Origin: an uncultured Alphaproteobacteria bacterium
Lineage (GTDB): Bacteria; Pseudomonadota; Alphaproteobacteria; Reyranellales; Reyranellaceae
Reading direction: 5' to 3'
Length of the DNA: 64,000 nucleotides
Assembly: GCA_963820155.1 (NCBI GenBank)
Contig: CAWFYW010000017.1
Span: 651,020-715,019 of the forward strand
Under the pieces are notes generated by a model. It saw only the letters and a program-made list of their open reading frames with translations. It was not told the DNA's origin and did no database searches. Below, piece after piece: positions 1,254 through 10,289 of this stretch. The position numbers were made by a program, and so were the translations under genes. How positions within the stretch are numbered: the first letter of the stretch is position 1; the number at the start of each line of letters is the position of its first letter.

Positions 1254-2474
1254 ATGAAACTATTCTTCGACGACGCCGAATTCGACGCACAGCTCCAGCG
1301 CACCGCCGCCAAGGTCGCCTGCCGTGCCGCCGACCTCGGTCAGGTGCTGAGCGTCGCCCGCCGCATAACGCCGGGCGACTACGCAAGCTGGTACGCCCAG
1401 TGGTTCGCCGAAGGCCGCAAGGAAACCGAGCTCGCGCGCGCCGAAAGCGCGCGGGGCCACCACCACAACGCCGGCGAGGCGTGGCTGCGCGGCAGCGAGT
1501 ATTTCCGCTCGGCCTATATCTTCGCCCGGCGCTATCCGCAGGGCGCCGCCCTGGTGGCGGCCTGGCGCCGCAGCCGCGACGCCTTCCGCGCGGCGCTGCC
1601 CGCCCTGAGCGCCGTCGAAGGGCCCGCCCTGCCGTTCGCGATCGAGGCGGTGCAGATTCCATGGCGGGACATCCATCTCGAAGGCTATGTCGTGCGCGGG
1701 CGCGCGCAGCACGGCGCGGCCGCTCCGACGGTACTGATGCCCTGTGGCTACGATTCGCCGGTCGAAGAATTCTACTCCCTCGGCGGCTTCGAGGCGGCGC
1801 TGCGCGGCTTCAACGTCGTCGCCTTCTCCGGGCCCGGGCAGGCGGAAATGCTGTACGAACGCGGCATCCCCTTCCGGCCCGACTTCGAGGCCGTGGTCGG
1901 CCGGGTGATCGACTTCGTCGAGCGCATGGCCGGCAGCGGCGGCGGCCTCGACCCTACGCGCATCGCCCTGGTCGGCCGCAGCTTCGCGGGCTACCTCGCG
2001 CCGCGCGCCGCCTCGCGCGAGCCGCGCATCGGCGCGCTCGCGGCCGATCCGGCGCAGACCGACATGGCCGCCGCCTTCGCCAAGCGCTTCCCGCCCGAGT
2101 GGCTCGAGCTGCTCGAGCGCGGCGATCCCGCGCTGAACGACAAGATTTGGCGGGCCTTCCCCGGCATGCACGGTCAGGAATTCTGGCTCTCGCGCATCCG
2201 CGCCCATGGCCTCGCCTCGCCGCTGGAATACTGCCAGGAGATGCGGCGCTGGACCGTCGATGTCGAGGCCATCCGCTGCCCGGCTTTCGTCTCCTACGGC
2301 GAGGGCGACTTCGCCCAGGTCTCGACCGAGGCCTTCTTCGAGCGCCTGCCCAACCCCAACAAGCGGCTGGTCGTGTATCGCGACGCCGACGGCGGCGGCG
2401 GTCATTGCGAAGGCATGGGGCCGAGCCGGTACTTCGCCGACCTCTACGGCTGGCTGCGGGATCTGTGGCCGTAG
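1254..2474 (+). CDS. Alpha/beta hydrolase (2,6-dihydroxypseudooxynicotine hydrolase-like family)
   Basis: Nucleophile elbow GRSFAG, C-terminal GGGHCE (catalytic His), GYDS motif, N-terminal MKLFFDDAEFDAQLQR typical of this family. Confidence 0.8.
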   Translation: MKLFFDDAEFDAQLQRTAAKVACRAADLGQVLSVARRITPGDYASWYAQWFAEGRKETELARAESARGHHHNAGEAWLRGSEYFRSAYIFARRYPQGAALVAAWRRSRDAFRAALPALSAVEGPALPFAIEAVQIPWRDIHLEGYVVRGRAQHGAAAPTVLMPCGYDSPVEEFYSLGGFEAALRGFNVVAFSGPGQAEMLYERGIPFRPDFEAVVGRVIDFVERMAGSGGGLDPTRIALVGRSFAGYLAPRAASREPRIGALAADPAQTDMAAAFAKRFPPEWLELLERGDPALNDKIWRAFPGMHGQEFWLSRIRAHGLASPLEYCQEMRRWTVDVEAIRCPAFVSYGEGDFAQVSTEAFFERLPNPNKRLVVYRDADGGGGHCEGMGPSRYFADLYGWLRDLWP

Positions 2475-2763
2475 TCTTGTTGGCGACCTCGCTGAAGCAA
2501 GCTGCTGGCGAGTGGACACATTGCCCAAGCAAGCTCCTCTCCCCCGCTAGGGGCAGTGGTTGGGCGGGGGGATGCGCACGTCGCTGCCACTTATGTTGTC
2601 CGCGCCTTATGACCTCTCCAGACGAGAGGAGCTGATCGCCTGGCTCACAAGACGAGCGACCGCGGCACGGAAAACGTTCTTGCCGATCTTGGGCTTGCTG
2701 GGAAGCTCATTGCCAAGACGATCTGGCGGGGGAAGAGGATCTGGGCTTGAGGGACGAGGGCGT

Positions 2764-3378
2764 CTATTTCGCAGCGATGCCGCGCAGCACGAGCTTGAGC
2801 CCGCTCAGGAACTCGGCCTCGGGCGAGATCCGGCGGGCGCTCCTGGCGGTCTCGGCGAGCAGCGGGAAGTCGTCGCGCGGCAGCGCCGCGATCGCCTCGG
2901 TGCCCTTTCCGCCGAGGGGGCCGAGATGCTCGAGCTGCACGGCGCCGAACACGTAGGCGACGATCGTTCGGAACGCGATCGCGCGGCGCTCGCCGGCGAA
3001 CCCTGCCTCGGCCAGTACGCCCAGCAGCGCTTCGCCCCAGCGCAGCGAATGGATCGAAGCATGGCGGTGCGCCAGGAGGAGTGGTGTCGCCGCAGGATGC
3101 GCCGTCGCCGCGGCGTGAGCGCGCTGGGCGAGCGCGGTCGCCTTGTCGACCCAGCTCTTGTGCCGGCTGACATCGAGATCGAGCCCCTCCAGCACGAGAT
3201 CGACCACCAGCGCTTCGAGCTGCTCGCGGCTCTGCACATAGCGGTAGAGCGACATGGTGCCCATGCCGAGCTCTTCGGCGACGGCGCGCATCGACAGGCC
3301 GAACGCGCCGTCGCGCTCGATCACCGCGAGCGCGGCCTTGGCAAGGCGGGCAGGGGTGAGGGAGCGCGGCCTAGGCAT
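2764..3378 (-). CDS. TetR family transcriptional regulator (TetR_C type)
   Basis: HTH LSMRAVAEELGMGTMSLYRYV; C-terminal FLSGLKLVLRGI. Confidence 0.9.
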   Translation of the reverse strand: MPRPRSLTPARLAKAALAVIERDGAFGLSMRAVAEELGMGTMSLYRYVQSREQLEALVVDLVLEGLDLDVSRHKSWVDKATALAQRAHAAATAHPAATPLLLAHRHASIHSLRWGEALLGVLAEAGFAGERRAIAFRTIVAYVFGAVQLEHLGPLGGKGTEAIAALPRDDFPLLAETARSARRISPEAEFLSGLKLVLRGIAAK

Positions 3379-3402
3379 GGTCGATGGCGGGCATGGTTGA
3401 CA

Positions 3403-3417
3403 GCGTACACGATACGC
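3403..3417. promoter_or_regulatory. Putative TetR operator 1 (GCGTA-N5-TACGC), directly after TTGACA at 3397-3402
   Basis: Perfect inverted repeat gcgta-cacga-tacgc in the tetR/ahpC divergent intergenic region. Confidence 0.6.
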
Positions 3418-3433
3418 CTTACATCTAAAATAA

Positions 3434-3448
3434 GAGTATGATGTACGC
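3434..3448. promoter_or_regulatory. Putative TetR operator 2 (GAGTA-N5-TACGC)
   Basis: Second copy of the same 15-bp motif with one mismatch, 31 bp downstream of operator 1. Confidence 0.5.
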
Positions 3449-3468
3449 CTAAATCCGCGAGGCCCGAC

Positions 3469-4137
3469 ATGCCCAATGGCCGTCCGATCTCCGCCGGTTC
3501 GCCCCTCCGGCCCTTCGTGCTGGAGGACATCGCGGGCCGCCGCGTCCGCATCCCGCAGGCCCCGGAACAGGGCCAGGCGCGGGAGCCGCCGCTGGTCCAT
3601 CTGCAGTTCCGCCGCTTCGCCGGCTGTCCGGTCTGCCATCTCCATCTGCGGTCTTTCGTCGGCCGCCGCCGCGAACTCGAGGCGGCCGGGGTCTGCGAGG
3701 TCGTGCTGTTCCACAGCGCCGCCGAGGAGTTGCGGCCCCATGCGGCGGATTTCCCCTTTGCGCTCGTCGCCGATCCCGACAAGCGCCTCTACGCCCGGTT
3801 CGGCGTGACCGCCTCGCCGCGCGCGCTGCTCGACCCGCGCGCCTGGCTGCCCATCCTGCGGGCGATCGCCTTCGCGCTCGGCGGCCTGCTCGCCGGGACC
3901 GTGCGCGCGCCCGGCCTCAATCCGCGCGGCGGGCGCCTCGGCCTTCCCGCTGACTTCCTGATCGCGCCGGACGGCTCCGGGAACGGGCCGATGGAGGGGC
4001 GTGTCATCGCCTGCAAGTACGGCGCCCATGTCGACGATCACTGGTCCGTCGACGACGTCCTGGCGCAGGCTCGGGCGTGGCACGTTCGCCAGGAAGGATT
4101 GCGCCTTGAAGCCCTGCCGGCATCGGCCGCAGTTTGA
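3469..4137 (+). CDS. AhpC/TSA (peroxiredoxin-like) redoxin family protein
   Basis: LQFRRFAGCPVCHLHLR (CxxC), FALVADPDKRLYARFGV, LGLPADFLI, KYGAHVDDHWSVD. Confidence 0.85.
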   Translation: MPNGRPISAGSPLRPFVLEDIAGRRVRIPQAPEQGQAREPPLVHLQFRRFAGCPVCHLHLRSFVGRRRELEAAGVCEVVLFHSAAEELRPHAADFPFALVADPDKRLYARFGVTASPRALLDPRAWLPILRAIAFALGGLLAGTVRAPGLNPRGGRLGLPADFLIAPDGSGNGPMEGRVIACKYGAHVDDHWSVDDVLAQARAWHVRQEGLRLEALPASAAV

Positions 4138-4278
4138 CGGCACTGCTGTCAAACGAGCCATCTCACGGCGCGCACGCTTCCTTCGGTCAGAAAAATTTTC
4201 TGGTCCTTTACGGCACCCAAAAAGTCGAGAGGCAGGCCCCGGCCAAAGGACAGATGCCAAAAAGGCCTATTGAACGGC

Positions 4279-4408
4279 CCTGCCCATTCCCAACAAGCGG
4301 CTGGTCATGTACCGCGACGCCGATGGCAGCGGCGGCCACGGCGGAGGCATGGGACCGACGCGGTACTTCTCGCATCTGTCCGGGTCGCTGCATCATCTGT
4401 GGCCGTAG
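4279..4408 (+). pseudogene. Degenerate 130-bp copy of the 3' end of the hydrolase gene (2345-2474)
   Basis: Ungapped manual alignment gives 106/130 identity and ends on the same ...CTGTGGCCGTAG stop. Translates LPIPNKRLVMYRDADGSGGH versus LPNPNKRLVVYRDADGGGGH. Confidence 0.85.
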
Positions 4409-4750
4409 CTGCAGAAGCAGAGAAGCTTCACGCCGCCTCGCCTTTCTTCGGCACGCCGCCGCTCGGTCACCAACGTTTCACCACCAATGCTTGCCGGCCG
4501 GGCCGAACCACGCTGGCGAGTCCCTGACAACGCGAGCGAAAGCCCCAGAACACCGTACGGTCGAAACGGCCGAGCCCGCCGGTGAAAAAATCTTGCGCCG
4601 TACGGTACGCAAAAACTCTGAAGGGGCCCGGGCTTGCCCGAACGCCTTGCGTAGAGCCCGCGTCGCTCTACTCTGTCAGAATACAACTGACGATAGGTTG
4701 AAGCAGAAGGCGCGCTTCGGTATTTTCTCTCCATAAGCCCGGCCGCCATC

Positions 4751-4810
4751 GATAAACTTTAGTTTTATACCATATGAACTTGACATATACTTAAGAGATG
4801 ATTATCTACC
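4751..4810 (+). promoter_or_regulatory. AT-rich promoter region upstream of the SLT gene (TTGACA at 4780-4785)
   Basis: 16/60 G+C (27%) in a high-GC background. Perfect -35 hexamer but only a weak -10. Confidence 0.4.
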
Positions 4811-4869
4811 CTGAGAGGCCGCTCCTTTTTGCTCCCGTGAAGAGCAGAGCTGGCCCGCGGAGACTTCGT

Positions 4870-6117
4870 ATGGTCAATCCATTCTCTCGAACCAGGACGC
4901 CGGGCTTCAATGTCAGGCCGCAGGACGACCTGCCGGGCTTTCGCCTCGACCCTGAGCAGGAGGTCCCCGGCTTCGACGTCGACGACAACGGCCTGCCACG
5001 ACCTCGTTCCTTCGCCGATTCCCAAAGCTCGGTGCAGCCGGCGCTGGCGCAGGCAACGGTGGATCCGTTTGCCCCCGACTGGCTACGCAGGCTGTTGGCG
5101 CTGCCGCAGCCTCCCGCGTGGATGCCGCCCGGGCTGCGTTGGCCGCCGGCGCGGAACCTTCCGGTCGGGCCAACGGACACGACTGCGACACCGCCCGAGC
5201 CGGACGAACCCGCCGCCGCTTTCCGAGGGAGCGATCCGGACGAGACCAACAGCGCCGCCGCCTCAGCCCGGGATGACGGTCAGTTCCATCCGCAGGCTGG
5301 CGTCTCCGGTCCCTGGGTCCGCTCGACCGGCGCGCCGCCTCTTCCGGCCACCCCCTCGTCCGCGGACCCGAACTTCGTCCTCGCCAACGCGGACGACGAT
5401 GGCGTGGAGGAGGCGCAGCGCCAGGCACAGCCCCAGACAAGGCCGGCGGCGCCGTCGCGTCCGGGACAGGGCAGGACGCCTCCTGCGCCTGGTCCGCAAA
5501 CACCCAGCATGGAAATGACCGAATCCGAACGCCAGCGCGAGCAGGCATTCGCCGATCTCAAAAATCTGTGGCGGCATCAGACGACTTGGGACCGCATCAT
5601 TCGGACTGCGCCTCCGCCCGACGACCCGAACTACAAGGTCCCGAACCAGCTGCCCGACACCTGGGAGGAATTCCTCGGGGGAATCGATCCGCGCTACCCC
5701 GTATGGACGCGCGCCGCGGGAGAGCACTACAACATCCCGCCGGAACTGCTCGCCCGGCTGATCTATCAGGAATTGAAGTACAACAAGAACGCGGCGAACG
5801 GCGCGGCATTGGGCATCGCGCAACTGACGCCCGGCGCGGTCAAGTCGGTGGGCCGCGATCCACGCACGTTCGACTATCACGACCCGCAGGCTTCGATCGA
5901 TGCCGCCGCTGCCTACCTCGCGCAGCAATATCGACAGTTCAAGGATTGGCCGAAGGCGGTTGCCGCCTACAATGTCGGAGCCGGGCGGATCCGGGGCTGG
6001 CTCCGAGGCAAGGGAGAAGATCCGTCCGCGAAAGAGCAGCAACCGCAGTGGTGGCGGGAGATGAATGCCCATCTCCAGCAGGTCTTCCGCGGCCGGCCGG
6101 ATTATTTCGACAAGTAG
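4870..6117 (+). CDS. Lytic transglycosylase (SLT domain) with long Pro-rich N-terminus and three 11-aa PGF repeats
   Basis: C-terminal SLT motifs LLARLIYQE(L), GIAQL, AVAAYNVG. GGAGA RBS before ATG 4870. No signal peptide visible. Confidence 0.85.
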   Translation: MVNPFSRTRTPGFNVRPQDDLPGFRLDPEQEVPGFDVDDNGLPRPRSFADSQSSVQPALAQATVDPFAPDWLRRLLALPQPPAWMPPGLRWPPARNLPVGPTDTTATPPEPDEPAAAFRGSDPDETNSAAASARDDGQFHPQAGVSGPWVRSTGAPPLPATPSSADPNFVLANADDDGVEEAQRQAQPQTRPAAPSRPGQGRTPPAPGPQTPSMEMTESERQREQAFADLKNLWRHQTTWDRIIRTAPPPDDPNYKVPNQLPDTWEEFLGGIDPRYPVWTRAAGEHYNIPPELLARLIYQELKYNKNAANGAALGIAQLTPGAVKSVGRDPRTFDYHDPQASIDAAAAYLAQQYRQFKDWPKAVAAYNVGAGRIRGWLRGKGEDPSAKEQQPQWWREMNAHLQQVFRGRPDYFDK

Positions 6118-6148
6118 CGTCGCTCACGCTCCAGGAGGAAGCCGCGCC

Positions 6149-7148
6149 GTGTTCCACCGCATCGTGCTACGGGCGACAATGACTGCTCTCGCGCTCGTTC
6201 TGCTCATGCTCGCTGCCCCTGCGTCGCATGCAAACTTCGATAGTTGGGACATATACAACTACGTCAAGGAGGACCAGGGGACGTGGGCGGCCTACTACCG
6301 AAGCCACGCTCGCGTCCGGCTGGGCCCCGAGCAGCGGCTGCCCAACGGCGTCAGTTGGCGCCTGCACACCGATGTCGGCACCGGGCTCGCCATGCCGCGC
6401 ATAACCTGGATGCCGGACGCCCGGAGGATGCGGACGGCGAACGCCCTGTTCGACATGGCCCAGGGCGCCGCCATGCTGGTCTCCCGCGCCGCCGGCCGGG
6501 AGCTCGATGAGGAGCAGGCCCGGCTTCGTCTCGACGCAAAGCCCATATTTCAACACGGCAAGCCCGTCGTCCAAACGGATGTCGGGCTGACCTATGCGAC
6601 GTCGAACCTGGTGAGCTTCATCGATCTTGGCTACATCGTCCACGAAGAAGGCAACGGCACCTGGAACATCACCCGCGGGCTGACGTTCGATCTCGCGGCC
6701 AGGCACGTATTCGGCATCGAAGCCTGTCCCGACAGCGACATCCCTTATACCGGCCTCCAGTATACGGTCACGAAGCTGGGCCTCAGGGAGCCGAGAAACT
6801 ATCTGTTCCAATTCGGACCCTTGCGGGTCTGCACTGCCGAGGCATACGAAAAATTCGTCGATGCTGCTGAAGCGCAGGGCGGCCCTGGCTGCTGAACAGG
6901 CTGCCGCAAGCAAGGATCCGCTCGTCCCGCTCTGCGGCGAGACGTCCGATCACGGAAACATCGCCAAGGACCAGGAGATCGTCCTCTACCTGACTTTCAA
7001 GGGCCTCGCCGTGCACAACACCGAATACTGGCCCAGCGCGAGCCGTGGCCCCTGCGTCCTCACCAGAAACTCCGTCAATCCGGTCATCCTTCCCTATCGG
7101 GAGCTCGAGCCCTTCATGGTGCCGGACCGTGGCGCGACGAGCTCCTGA
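6149..7148 (+). CDS. Secreted DUF3298/DUF4163 (RsiV/PdaC-like) protein, one frameshift near 6860; candidate immunity protein
   Basis: AGGAGG RBS, GTG start, signal peptide ...LLMLAAPASHA|NF. GLTFDLAARHVF and LYLTFKGLAVHNTEY..P.A.RG...VILPYRELEPF resemble the DUF3298 pattern. Two overlapping ORFs (6065-6895, 6861-7148) join into one protein. Confidence 0.55.
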
Positions 7149-7285
7149 AGCTGCCGTGAATGCGCTCCAGGGCGGTGCGGCTCAAATGACCGGCGGAAAC
7201 GCCGGAAGGGGCGCTAACCTACAAGTTGCGCAGAGCACCCGCCGACGGCGAGGCGCTCGAGCTCATGCCGGACACTCGTTCTTGG

Positions 7286-7313
7286 CAGTTTTGCTGAATG
7301 GTGCGCAAAACTG
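7286..7313. terminator. Inverted repeat between convergent genes
   Basis: cagttttgc-N10-gcaaaactg, perfect 9-bp stem. Confidence 0.45.
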
Positions 7314-7322
7314 GACAAGCCT

Positions 7323-8879
7323 CTACACGATGCGGCTCGTCCTGTTGCCCCAGTAGCGATCGCGCAGCAGGCGCTTGTAGAGCTTGCCGGTCGGCAGGCG
7401 CGGCAGCTCGGCCTCGAAGTCGACCGAGCGCGGCACCTTCTGTCGCGCAAGATGCCGACCGCAGAAGGCGATCAGTTCTTCGGCGGTTTCCGGCCCCGGC
7501 GGGATGCCCGGCATGAGCTGCACCACCGCCTTCACCTCCTCGCCGAGGTCGGCGTTGGGCACGCCGAACACGGCGGCGTCGGCCACCTTGGGATGGGTGA
7601 TCAGGAGGTTCTCGCATTCCTGCGGGTAGATGTTCACGCCGCCCGAGATGATCATGAAGGTCGCGCGGTCGGTGAGGTGGAGATAGCCGTCCTGGTCGAC
7701 ATAGCCGACGTCGCCCACCGTGCTCATGCGGCCGTCCGGCGACCGCGCCTCGGCGGTCTTCTGCGGATCGTTGAAATATTCGAAGGGCGTCGCCGTCTCG
7801 AACCACAGCGTGCCGGGCGTGCCCATCGGCAGCTCGTTCATCGCGTCGTCCAGCACGTGCAGCTTGCCCAGCAGCACGCGGCCCACCGTGCCCTTGTGCG
7901 CCAGCCACTCCTCGCTGAATTGCAGGCGGTGAAGCCCAGCCCCTCGGTGGCGCCGTAATATTCGTGGATGATCGGCCCCCACCACTCGATCATCTGCTCC
8001 TTGACCTGGACCGGGCAGGGCGCCGCCGCATGGATGGCGATCTCGAGCGAGGAGAGGTCGTGCTTCGCGCACGCGTCGACTCGGGCAGCTTGAGCAGGCG
8101 CGAGAACATGGTCGGCACGAGCTGGCTGTGCGTCACGTGGTGCTTCTCGACGAGCTGCAGGTAATGCTCGGCGTCGAAGCGTTCCATGATGACGGCCGTG
8201 CCGCCCTTGCGGATGGTGAGCCCGACCGCCGCCTGCGGCGCCGAATGATAGAGCGGCGCCGGCGACAGGTAGATCATGCCCTCGCGGTACTGCCAGAGCT
8301 TCTCCAGGAAGTCGAAGATCGGCAGCTGCTGCGCCGGCGGCTGCTCGGGCAGCGGTCGCAGGATGCCCTTGGGGCGGCCCGTGGTCCCCGAGGAGTAGAG
8401 CATGGCGGTGCCCAGCGACTCGTCGGCGATGCGGCGTCGACGGCAGGCCGGCCGTCGCCTGGTCGAGATTGAGGATGCGGTCGCCGTCGCCCGGCCCGTC
8501 GACGATCAGGCAGAGCTCGATCCCGGGACAGAGCGGCAGCGCCGCCAGCGCCACGTCGCGCTTGGCCTGCGAGGTGATCAGCACCTTCGACTGGCTGTTG
8601 TTCAGGATGTAGGCGAGCTCCTCGGCCGTCAGGAAGGAGTTCACGCACGTGTAATAATGGCCGGCCCGCTCGCCCGCCGCGCAGCATTCGACGTAGCGCG
8701 CGTTGTTCTCCATGTAGATCGAGTAGTGGTCGAGTCGCGCCGAGGCCGCGGGCGCGCAGCAGATGCGCCAGCCGGTTGCTGCGCGCTTCGAGCTCGCCGT
8801 AGGTGATCGTCTCGCCGGTCCCGGCCATGATCACGGCCGGATGCGTCGCGCGCGACGCGGCATGTTTGCCCGGATACAT
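7323..8879 (-). CDS. Acyl-CoA synthetase / AMP-dependent ligase, about 4 frameshifts (near 8740, 8431, 8070, 7918)
   Basis: AMP-binding motif MLYSSGTTGRPKG, EYYGATEG, IISGGVNIYPQE, LPTGKLYKR, spread across 3 frames. GGAGG RBS. Confidence 0.85.
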
Positions 8880-8937
8880 TTTGTTTCCTCCGCGCCGACT
8901 ATAGACGCCGTAACGGGCCTGCGCCAAAGTCCGCGCC

Positions 8938-10231
8938 ATGCTCGAAACATCGCTCAAGACAAAGATCATGGACGAGGTCGATCGGCGCTTCGACGACCAG
9001 ACCAAGGTGCTGGCCGATCTGGTGAAGATCCCCTCGACGCGGTTCCGCGAGGCGCCGGCGCAGGACATGATGGCCCGCCTGTTCAAGGAGGACGGGCTTT
9101 CCGTCGATCGCTGGCAGATCAAGATCGACGATCTGAAGCACCTGCCGGGCTATTCGCCGCATTCGCAGGATTACGACAACGCCTGGAACGTGGTCGGCGC
9201 TTGGCGGCCCAACGGCCCATCCTCGCGCCAAGGGGGCCGCTCGCTGATCCTGAACGGCCATATCGACGTCGTGCCCGAAGGCCCGCACGACATGTGGAGC
9301 CGGCCGCCCTTCGAGCCTGCGATCAAGGACGGCTGGATGTATGGCCGCGGCGCCGGCGACATGAAGGCCGGCCTCATCCTCAACGTCTTCGCCCTGCGGG
9401 CGCTGCAAGGCGCTGGGCTTCCAGCCGGCGGCGGATGTCTACCAGCAGTCGGTGGTCGAGGAGGAATGCACCGGCAACGGCGCGCTCGCCTGCCTGCAGC
9501 GCGGCTACCGCGCCGATGCCGCGCTCATTCCCGAGCCGTCGTCGGGCGTGCTGACCGTGGCCCAGGTCGGCGTCATGTGGTTCCAGGTCAAGGTCACCGG
9601 CCATCCCGTGCATGTCTACAAGGCCGATGCCGGCTCGAACGCCATCGAATCGGCGTTCCGCCTGATCCAGCACCTGCGCGACCTCGAGAAGAAGTGGAAC
9701 GAGAAGAAGACGGACGACGAGCATTTCCACGACCACCATCACCCGGTGAACTTCAATGTCGGCAAGATCGCCGGCGGCGACTGGGCGAGCTCGGTGCCGG
9801 CCTGGTGCACCTTCGACATGCGGGTGGGCGTGCTGCCGTCGCAGAACCTCAAGGAAGCGCGGCAGGAGATCGAGGACCTGATCCGCGCGGCGGCGGCCAA
9901 CGATCCGTTCCTGGGCAACAATCCGCCGACCGTGACCTGGGAAGGCTTCCAGGCCGAGCCCTTCGTGCTCAGGAACCACGAGCAGGTGCGGGTCGTCCTG
10001 GCCGAGGCGCACAAGGCGGTGTTCGGCAGTGCGCTCGAGGACAAGACCTCGACCGGCACGGCCGACAACCGCTTCTTCGGCCTCTATGCCGGCATTCCGG
10101 CGCTGGTCTACGGCCCGCAGTCCGACGACATCCACGGCTTCGACGAGCGCGTGAACCTCGACTCGGTCCGCAAGATCACCCAGGCGACGGCCCTGTTCAT
10201 CGCCGAATGGTGCGGCCTGCAGACGGCTTAG
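8938..10231 (+). CDS. ArgE/DapE family (M20) deacylase, one frameshift near 9406
   Basis: [37 protein letters not shown]. Total span is 3n+1. Confidence 0.85.
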
Positions 10232-10237
10232 AGCCGG

Positions 10238-10260
10238 GGGCGCGCCATTCCAGTGGCGCG
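10238..10260. repeat. REP-like palindrome, family B (single unit)
   Basis: gggcgcgccattccagtggcgcg differs by one base from 35786-35808 and lies between convergent stops. Confidence 0.7.
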
Positions 10261-10289
10261 GCGCGTGGACCGGCGTCGTGAGGCACCGC

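Follow-up and report, generated by a model that had tools for sequence, protein, structure and literature searches.

How a protein without a signal peptide, and largely disordered, could introduce a nuclease, or an enzyme acting on the cell wall, into another bacterium is the question raised by a gene at positions 4870-6117 (+ strand) of a 64,000-nucleotide stretch of DNA from an uncultured alphaproteobacterium of the Reyranellaceae (this whole stretch is called the window below). The gene encodes a protein of 415 residues, as delimited by its open reading frame (ORF), the alignment of homologues and an AlphaFold model, in which a disordered leader bearing repeated Pro-Gly-Phe (PGF) units is followed by a junction motif, a linker helix and a C-terminal lytic transglycosylase (SLT) domain, or head. 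An earlier note, made from the letters of this DNA, had taken the PGF repeat for a possible trafficking signature of a polymorphic toxin. From the comparisons described here, the leader probably serves as the constant module for delivery that members of a polymorphic toxin family in Reyranella-like soil Alphaproteobacteria have in common, and the window gene is its SLT-headed member.

With the whole window protein as query, 34 clusters were recovered among 5.8 billion, and three of them (P0029, P0032 and P0033) have the leader and no SLT domain. A profile of the region ahead of the enzyme, with SLT removed, was then used in an exhaustive search of 1.84 billion representative proteins, which gave 207 clusters at E ≤ 1e-3, of which 85 reached E ≤ 1e-10. 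Full-length leader proteins fall into at least ten C-terminal classes: the SLT domain of the window gene (PF01464); a WHH-like head with the motif MQWHHIVEQ, which has a glycine-rich hydrophobic hairpin ahead of it; Tox-REase-7 (Pfam 36.7 bits, cut-off 25); heads with the PD-(D/E)xK-like motifs YDYI...EVKTT and TDVVL...YDLKTG; a VRR_NUC-like head with a weak Pfam match (17 bits, cut-off 23.8); the PDLL...WEVKP head of P0075; Colicin_M (Pfam 80.8 bits; P0128); the GRFDY head of P0051 and P0151; and the singleton heads of P0143 and P0065. Independently, when this profile was used in a word-indexed search, leader proteins were recovered that have precomputed assignments to PF01464 or PF15649. The leader begins at residue 1 in all head classes, the apparent offsets being a second PGF block or mis-called starts, and at 42 soil-metagenome loci the N-termini are 70-98% identical while the heads are unrelated. 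The earlier note had named restriction to SLT orthologues, or a lack of conservation, as the result that would speak against its proposal; the motif is conserved, and the leader is also found on Tox-REase-7, Colicin_M, WHH-like and other nuclease-like C-termini, and the profile search and the table of C-terminal domains and downstream genes that it had called for gave many heads, each with its own partner.

The leader itself has no credible match in Pfam, NCBIfam or PDB sequence searches, in line with the suggestion of an unnamed family, and our search of the published literature found no mention of it. No credible match in the same three libraries was obtained for the WHH-like, YDYI, TDVVL, P0075, P0143, P0151 and P0065 heads; the WHH-like head has a weak PDB match (E 0.33) to a nicking endonuclease, which is a lead only. 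The leader, the junction motif, several heads and most of the immunity partners are new to the libraries searched, whereas polymorphic toxins and SLT heads were already known (PMC3482391). The result is a catalogue of at least ten toxin heads, several with no family assignment, together with their putative immunity partners.

The gene downstream of the toxin changes with the head. Wherever the downstream ORF is intact (18/18 loci), its class goes with the class of the head. The WHH-like head is followed by a 113-residue DUF2019 protein (9/9 loci, always with a gap of 19 nt), Tox-REase-7 by a 260-residue protein (3/3, with a 4-bp overlap), the YDYI-type head by a 211-residue protein (2 loci, gap 11-12 nt), the TDVVL-type head by a 206-residue protein (1 locus, 4-bp overlap), and the SLT head by a signal-peptide protein at variable spacing (5/5). 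The 260-, 211- and 206-residue proteins have no credible Pfam, NCBIfam or PDB match. Among the paired partners, only that of the periplasm-acting SLT head carries a signal peptide, so that the predicted localisation of the partner fits the site at which SLT would act. For the Colicin_M head at locus L129 there is no clear immunity candidate: the gene of this PGF protein lies within 2214-3740, and the convergent ORF at 3321-3740 (-) carries a Tat/Sec-like signal, matches TctC over a short stretch and is perhaps a truncated gene for a transporter, not for Cmi-like immunity.

In the window, the partner is an immunity-like gene at 6179-7159 (+), which encodes about 326 residues with a signal-peptide-like N-terminus (MTALALVLLMLAAPASHA) and has an RsiV/DUF3298-like model. 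It belongs to a family of 92 clusters, and neither the window ORF nor any of the 92 relatives has a Pfam assignment, DUF3298 included. The model (predicted local distance difference test, pLDDT, 87) has its best match in 3cyg (E 1.9e-5), then in lysozyme-bound RsiV (5jen, E 1.4e-3) and DUF3298 structures (3s5t, E 2.4e-3, and also 4e72), and the TM-scores are only 0.3-0.5. Like RsiV and DUF3298 proteins, the downstream protein is exported, has a similar model fold and is the neighbour of a lysozyme-fold protein; unlike RsiV it is not an anti-sigma factor, and its lysozyme-type binding is putative. Judging from the models, an exported protein with a lysozyme-receptor fold beside a lysozyme-fold enzyme looks like the expected form of an immunity protein for a periplasm-acting toxin. 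At locus L176 (5479-7496), two tandem RsiV-like paralogues, 65% identical, follow one SLT-headed toxin.

The window copy of the immunity-like gene is spread over three frame segments by tblastn, with an extra T at 6862 and a C missing after 7121. Short-read contigs of related strains have one base fewer at 6862 and one C more after 7121, and with both positions corrected the gene reads through for 326 residues. We treat the two indels as probable assembly errors because other genes of the window are also frame-broken, although real decay is possible too. An acyl-CoA synthetase-like gene at 7323-9122 (-) is spread over three overlapping frames, and half-way through an M20 peptidase ORF at 8938-10281 (+) the frame is lost and the sequence turns Arg/Gly-rich. 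Taken with the two indels of the immunity-like gene, the frame-broken genes of 7323-10281 suggest many single-base errors in the window, or real pseudogenes.

The architecture agrees with the polymorphic-toxin framework of Zhang et al. 2012 (PMC3482391), as the earlier note had proposed: a constant N-terminus carries alternative heads, a head-specific gene lies downstream, and orphan cassettes occur. A recognised trafficking domain or linkage to secretion genes was not found in Pfam, NCBIfam or the flanks. The shared module ends at the junction, or pre-toxin, motif DPNFVLANADDDGVEEAQ (5365-5418, +; residues 166-183), which is the short motif that had been pointed out ahead of the enzyme, and the heads differ beyond it. 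D[PS]NF.LANA is present on SLT, Tox-REase-7, WHH-like, VRR_NUC-like and other heads, and an orphan toxin remnant in L151 (1902-2498) begins at this motif; to judge by the alignments, it marks the head-exchange point. Surplus immunity genes or a toxin remnant lie downstream in L136, L150 and L151, with additional DUF2019 genes in the first two. The CdiA, Rhs and MafB toxins have the pre-toxin motifs VENN and PxxxxDPxGL. The PGF proteins are like them in having a short motif at the exchange point, and toxin C-terminal remnants and extra immunity genes downstream, but unlike them they are small (~400-600 residues) and have no two-partner secretion domain, filamentous haemagglutinin region, RHS repeats or signal peptide.

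The PGF repeat of the window protein consists of three 11-residue units at 4900-4998 (+), starting at 4900 (CCGGGCTTC), 4933 (CCGGGCTTT) and 4966 (CCCGGCTTC), with the translations PGFNVRPQDDL, PGFRLDPEQEV and PGFDVDDNGLP; positions and peptides were as the earlier note had read them. Its description of the repeat as an exact one of 33 bp holds for the period and not for the units, which are identical to one another at 15-18/33 bases and 4/11 residues and were not reported by Tandem Repeats Finder. A tripeptide occurring three times at equal spacing was obtained in 33 of 20000 shuffles of the window protein (~0.002). Conservation across the family is stronger evidence than this periodicity. 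An alignment of 21 diverse members shows no variation at F13, P22, G34 and F35 and hardly any at G23 and F24, which makes the PGF residues the best conserved positions ahead of the head and bears out the expectation of a conserved repeat. From 150 repeat units of the family the consensus P-G-F-[RN]-V-x-P-Q-D-D-V was derived, and the last unit of family members ends PGF[ND][VIL]D[ED]NG. The spacing of the last two motifs is variable in the family, because P0005-P0009 carry, in the region aligned to window positions 4942-4965, one to four additional LDPEx/LGAEA pentapeptides between PGF units 2 and 3.

Across the family the leader has about 165-350 residues, is proline-rich and is predicted to be intrinsically disordered, and its layout is constant: a Met-Phe-Asn cap, two to five PGF units, the P[DE]WL motif and the D[PS]NF.LANA junction. 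Residues 1-45, which had been put forward as the conserved module, are indeed conserved, but the module is larger and reaches the DPNF.LANA junction. In the window the cap, MVNPFSRTRT (4870-4899, +; family consensus MFNxF(F/S)R..., always at residue 1), precedes the PGF units, and the P[DE]WL motif is DWLRRLL (5077-5097, +; family P[DE]WL..L..MP.P), in which L72 is invariant. An AlphaFold model of the window protein, built with an alignment of 24 sequences, predicts a leader of more than 200 residues, 19% of them proline, with pLDDT below 50 over residues 1-212 except for DWLRRLL, the sole helix predicted there (seven residues, 70-76). Residues 218-245 (TESERQREQAFADLKNLWRHQTTWDRII; 5521-5604, +) form the linker helix, modelled with pLDDT of about 90 and common to Tox-REase-7 and WHH-like members. 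Directly 3' of the junction motif, a Gln/Pro-rich linker contains a 12-bp tandem repeat, AGGCACAGCCCC, in 2.2 copies (5411-5436); a related strain (run X1) is without 12 bp at 5421, which amounts to an in-frame length polymorphism in this linker.

The SLT domain (PF01464; 5710-6024, +) scores 75.1 bits in Pfam against a cut-off of 21.3, and no other Pfam family is found in the window toxin. Its catalytic residue, Glu301 (5770-5772), aligns with the catalytic Glu of Pseudomonas aeruginosa Slt, which is the residue replaced in the E503Q mutant, and the SLT motifs GIAQL and AYNVG are at 5812-5826 and 5965-5979; the residue after the catalytic Glu is Leu in the window protein and Ser in relatives. 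The domain is modelled confidently by AlphaFold, and the top Foldseek matches are Slt, MltF, MltE and g-type (goose) lysozyme, all with probability 1.00. Because the fold matches and the catalytic Glu is kept, the enzyme looks competent. Membership of the flagellar assembly lytic transglycosylase family was considered and rejected (NCBIfam 41 bits, cut-off 234).

Heads and junction are also found on proteins with another kind of N-terminus. P0021 and P0028 share the junction motif, the linker, the SLT head and the RsiV-like partner with the PGF toxins, and have instead of the leader a helical N-terminus of about 390 residues, which in P0021 matches the phage families 'lytic tail protein', 'internal virion protein with endolysin domain' and 'endolysin' (phrog_2013, phrog_342 and phrog_1044). 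In L178 a 700-residue internal-virion-like protein joins a helical N-terminus and DPNIVR...QIAQQQ to a GRFDY head as on the PGF proteins P0051 and P0151. Since these proteins share them, heads and junction appear, from the alignments, to be exchanged between two types of N-terminal module, one of which is phage-derived. The PGF proteins are like podovirus internal virion (T7 gp16-like) proteins in that their SLT head, linker and junction have homologous counterparts in P0021 and the L178 protein, and unlike them in having a PGF leader in place of the helical N-terminal region. This common junction suggests that phage ejection proteins and bacterial toxins have traded warheads. In L178 (1-9002) there is a T7-like virion module that comprises a tail fibre, a pair of internal virion proteins and T7_gp14; the 700-residue protein is followed by truncated N-terminal copies and by an orphan, distantly related RsiV-like gene. 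The arrangement suggests that ejection proteins of phages swap heads and that the RsiV-like protein possibly serves in superinfection exclusion.

How the leader would deliver its heads is less certain than the architecture. We favour, tentatively and at somewhat under an even chance, release and import of the colicin or pyocin type, without a dedicated secretion system, over cargo of a secretion system. The first reason is that the protein is signal-less, with a long disordered N-terminus of invariant short motifs at or near residue 1; the absence of a signal that the earlier note had remarked on agrees with the hydropathy profile, whose maximum over 19 residues (0.75) lies inside the SLT domain, and with the lack of any hydrophobic stretch in residues 1-60. 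The second is the presence of a Colicin M head, a domain that acts only from outside, and the third that the loci are stand-alone modules of two or three genes with no secretion genes nearby. Like colicin M, pesticin and the S-type pyocins, the PGF proteins are signal-less, have ~270-600 residues and an unstructured N-terminus, and are encoded at stand-alone loci; their heads likewise include lipid II cleavage, cell-wall hydrolysis and nucleases, and they have a dedicated immunity gene, whose product is periplasmic for periplasm-acting heads. Colicin M itself lacks a lysis gene and carries its TonB box in an unstructured N-terminus, and its orthologues are named only from Pseudomonas, Pectobacterium, Burkholderia and Klebsiella, with none from Alphaproteobacteria (PMC8469651).

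In such a mechanism, the signal-less toxin would be released from the producer and its disordered leader would pass into the target by way of an outer-membrane protein, where linear motifs of the leader would engage the periplasmic import machinery. The PGF units and the TonB-box-like strand of the junction are candidate binding epitopes. If delivery is indeed of the colicin type, Alphaproteobacteria would have here a class of bacteriocins whose import module is, unusually, disordered throughout. On the main reading of the family as polymorphic toxins, the SLT head would cut peptidoglycan in the periplasm of the rival, while in the periplasm of the producer the exported RsiV-like protein would attach to this head and inhibit it; interchangeable killing domains are recombined on after the D[PS]NF.LANA junction.

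Several points weigh against import of the colicin type. The PGF proteins have no sequence similarity to colicins and pyocins outside the heads and no canonical TonB or Tol box, and their disordered region is ~165-350 residues long, against ~35 in colicin M. DPNFVLANA may resemble TonB boxes such as DTLVVTA (acidic-x-x-hydrophobic-V-x-A), and it lies far from the N-terminus, unlike the TonB box of colicins. Classical colicins have a folded receptor-binding domain, and AlphaFold predicts none in the part of the window protein ahead of the linker helix, which starts at residue 218. A lysis gene was not seen either, and inspection by eye upstream of ATG 4870 showed no alphaproteobacterial LexA box (GTTC-N7-GTTC). 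Orphan toxin C-terminal cassettes are more typical of contact-dependent systems (contact-dependent inhibition, Rhs). An immunity-like gene with two frameshifts beside an intact toxin would be odd if real. Lastly, we infer toxicity, immunity and leader-mediated delivery, the trafficking function of the leader being deduced from architecture.

A bolder version, which we hold to be possible but on the unlikely side, is that these proteins use an undescribed route, in which rival Alphaproteobacteria would receive peptidoglycan hydrolases, lipid II hydrolases and nucleases by way of a fully disordered module of 165-350 residues, composed of short linear motifs only, with neither a receptor-binding fold nor a secretion machine. 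In that case the PGF units and DPNF.LANA would be new import epitopes, and phage ejection proteins would be the partners with which the family exchanges its junction and heads.

The main rival to colicin-like import, and also an unlikely one, is that the leader is a loading tag for an apparatus encoded elsewhere, of the T6SS (type VI secretion system) kind or a type III, type IV or contractile injection system, by which the toxin would be injected on contact, in the manner of MIX, FIX, RIX, PIX or WHIX cargo. Effectors with RIX, PIX and WHIX have an N-terminal marker, alternative toxic heads, a downstream immunity gene and frequently lie in orphan islands (PMC10435454, bioRxiv 2023.07.16.549128, PMC12135965). 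Judged by these descriptions, the PGF toxins have the same layout, with a conserved N-terminal marker, many heads and a cognate immunity gene in orphan islands, and more broadly they resemble the MIX and FIX cargo too. Periplasm-acting heads (SLT, Colicin M) and cytoplasm-acting nucleases both occur, as in T6SS arsenals, and orphan C-terminal cassettes are present. What the loci lack is linkage to such a system: no vgrG, hcp, PAAR, adaptor or other secretion-system gene was found within ~10 kb in ~30 loci or in the 64-kb window, and the leader stands behind a PAAR, VgrG or Rhs domain in none of the 150 relatives listed. Moreover, the known T6SS markers are generally folded domains, whereas the leader is proline-rich and predicted to be wholly disordered over more than 200 residues. 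The markers RIX, PIX and WHIX each opened an effector class and showed cargo recognition, and the PGF leader, unnamed in Pfam and NCBIfam, would be of interest on the same account.

Given the shared junction, linker, SLT and GRFDY heads of proteins with phage-virion-type N-termini, one of which, in L178, adjoins T7_gp14-like, internal virion and tail fibre genes and an orphan RsiV-like copy, the leader could also be a packaging signal into a phage-derived particle with delivery by the tail, in a family descended from podovirus internal virion proteins. We consider this minor rival improbable. The PGF leader has no match among phage families, and a scan of 2.9 million IMG/VR viral contigs with a narrower leader alignment, the window protein and P0021 found none; the PGF loci lie amid housekeeping genes with no virion genes nearby, and P0021 also occurs as a stand-alone module.

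That the window gene is instead a housekeeping lytic transglycosylase, for flagellum or pilus insertion for example, with the PGF repeat as incidental low complexity, is largely refuted and very improbable. In its favour, SLT is a common housekeeping domain, a weak flagellar NCBIfam match exists and the LDPEx pentapeptide expansions show a region tolerant of slippage. Against it, the protein has no signal peptide or membrane anchor, the same leader is on nucleases and Colicin M, the linker varies around PGF residues that do not, the head is matched by a dedicated partner gene with an exported product, which changes along with it, and flagellar or pilus genes are missing from among the neighbours.

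The start of the window gene is almost certainly ATG 4870, because a conserved ribosome-binding site precedes it and homologues begin MF(N/D)PFSRTRT at this point. The ORF as listed spans 4798-6117, with the PGF triplets in its frame, and the corresponding start at 4798 (439 residues) was rejected, being disfavoured by the homologue N-termini and by the ribosome-binding site. The latter is GGAGAC (4859-4864, +), 5 nt 5' of the ATG, in which GGAGA is invariant in 4/4 aligned upstream regions. Further upstream there is a promoter-like site, TTGACA-17 nt-TATCTA (4780-4808, +), aligned with TTGATA-17-TATCTA in L001, whose promoter role is putative. It falls in an AT-rich part of the window, where the GC content over 4400-5000 is 0.56-0.57 as against 0.68 for the whole. 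No Rfam match was found in 4100-7400.

As for the taxon, the source label 'Reyranella sp.', an alphaproteobacterial genus, is attached to the leader protein P0296, encoded in GCA_019750135.1, and to two immunity-like proteins. A local hmmsearch of contigs picked out by a loose degenerate DNA pattern found at least two leader genes, in Reyranella soli NBRC 108950 (L049) and in a metagenome-assembled genome (L095); the former has a strain designation and may be obtainable as a culture. Related sequence is present in soil and wetland metagenomes, and the window is syntenic with the 2.36-Mb contig bearing P0009. The PGF modules occupy differing chromosomal sites amid housekeeping genes, and the toxin islands have a GC content of 0.58-0.62, compared with 0.65-0.75 in the flanks.

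In the main PGF clade, a further gene of 224-229 codons (PWWSIPQ..W.VTRSE ... NHFGLSRKVALDIWN..PRDRKGGRPKK) ends 99 nt 5' of the toxin ATG at six loci. Its copies are at L131 825-1499, L132 7575-8249, L136 9212-9901, L140 582-1271, L147 942-1631, L150 426-1115 and L049 6583-7227; it is present in Reyranella soli and missing from the SLT subfamily of the window. The protein has no match in Pfam, NCBIfam, PHROG or PDB and, from its helix-turn-helix-like segments, may be a DNA-binding regulator. Upstream of the toxin gene in the window itself, 2764-4137 holds a TetR-family regulator (-; TetR_N and TetR_C_1 above the cut-off) and an AhpC/TSA-like ORF (below the Pfam cut-off), which look like ordinary neighbours unrelated to the toxin.

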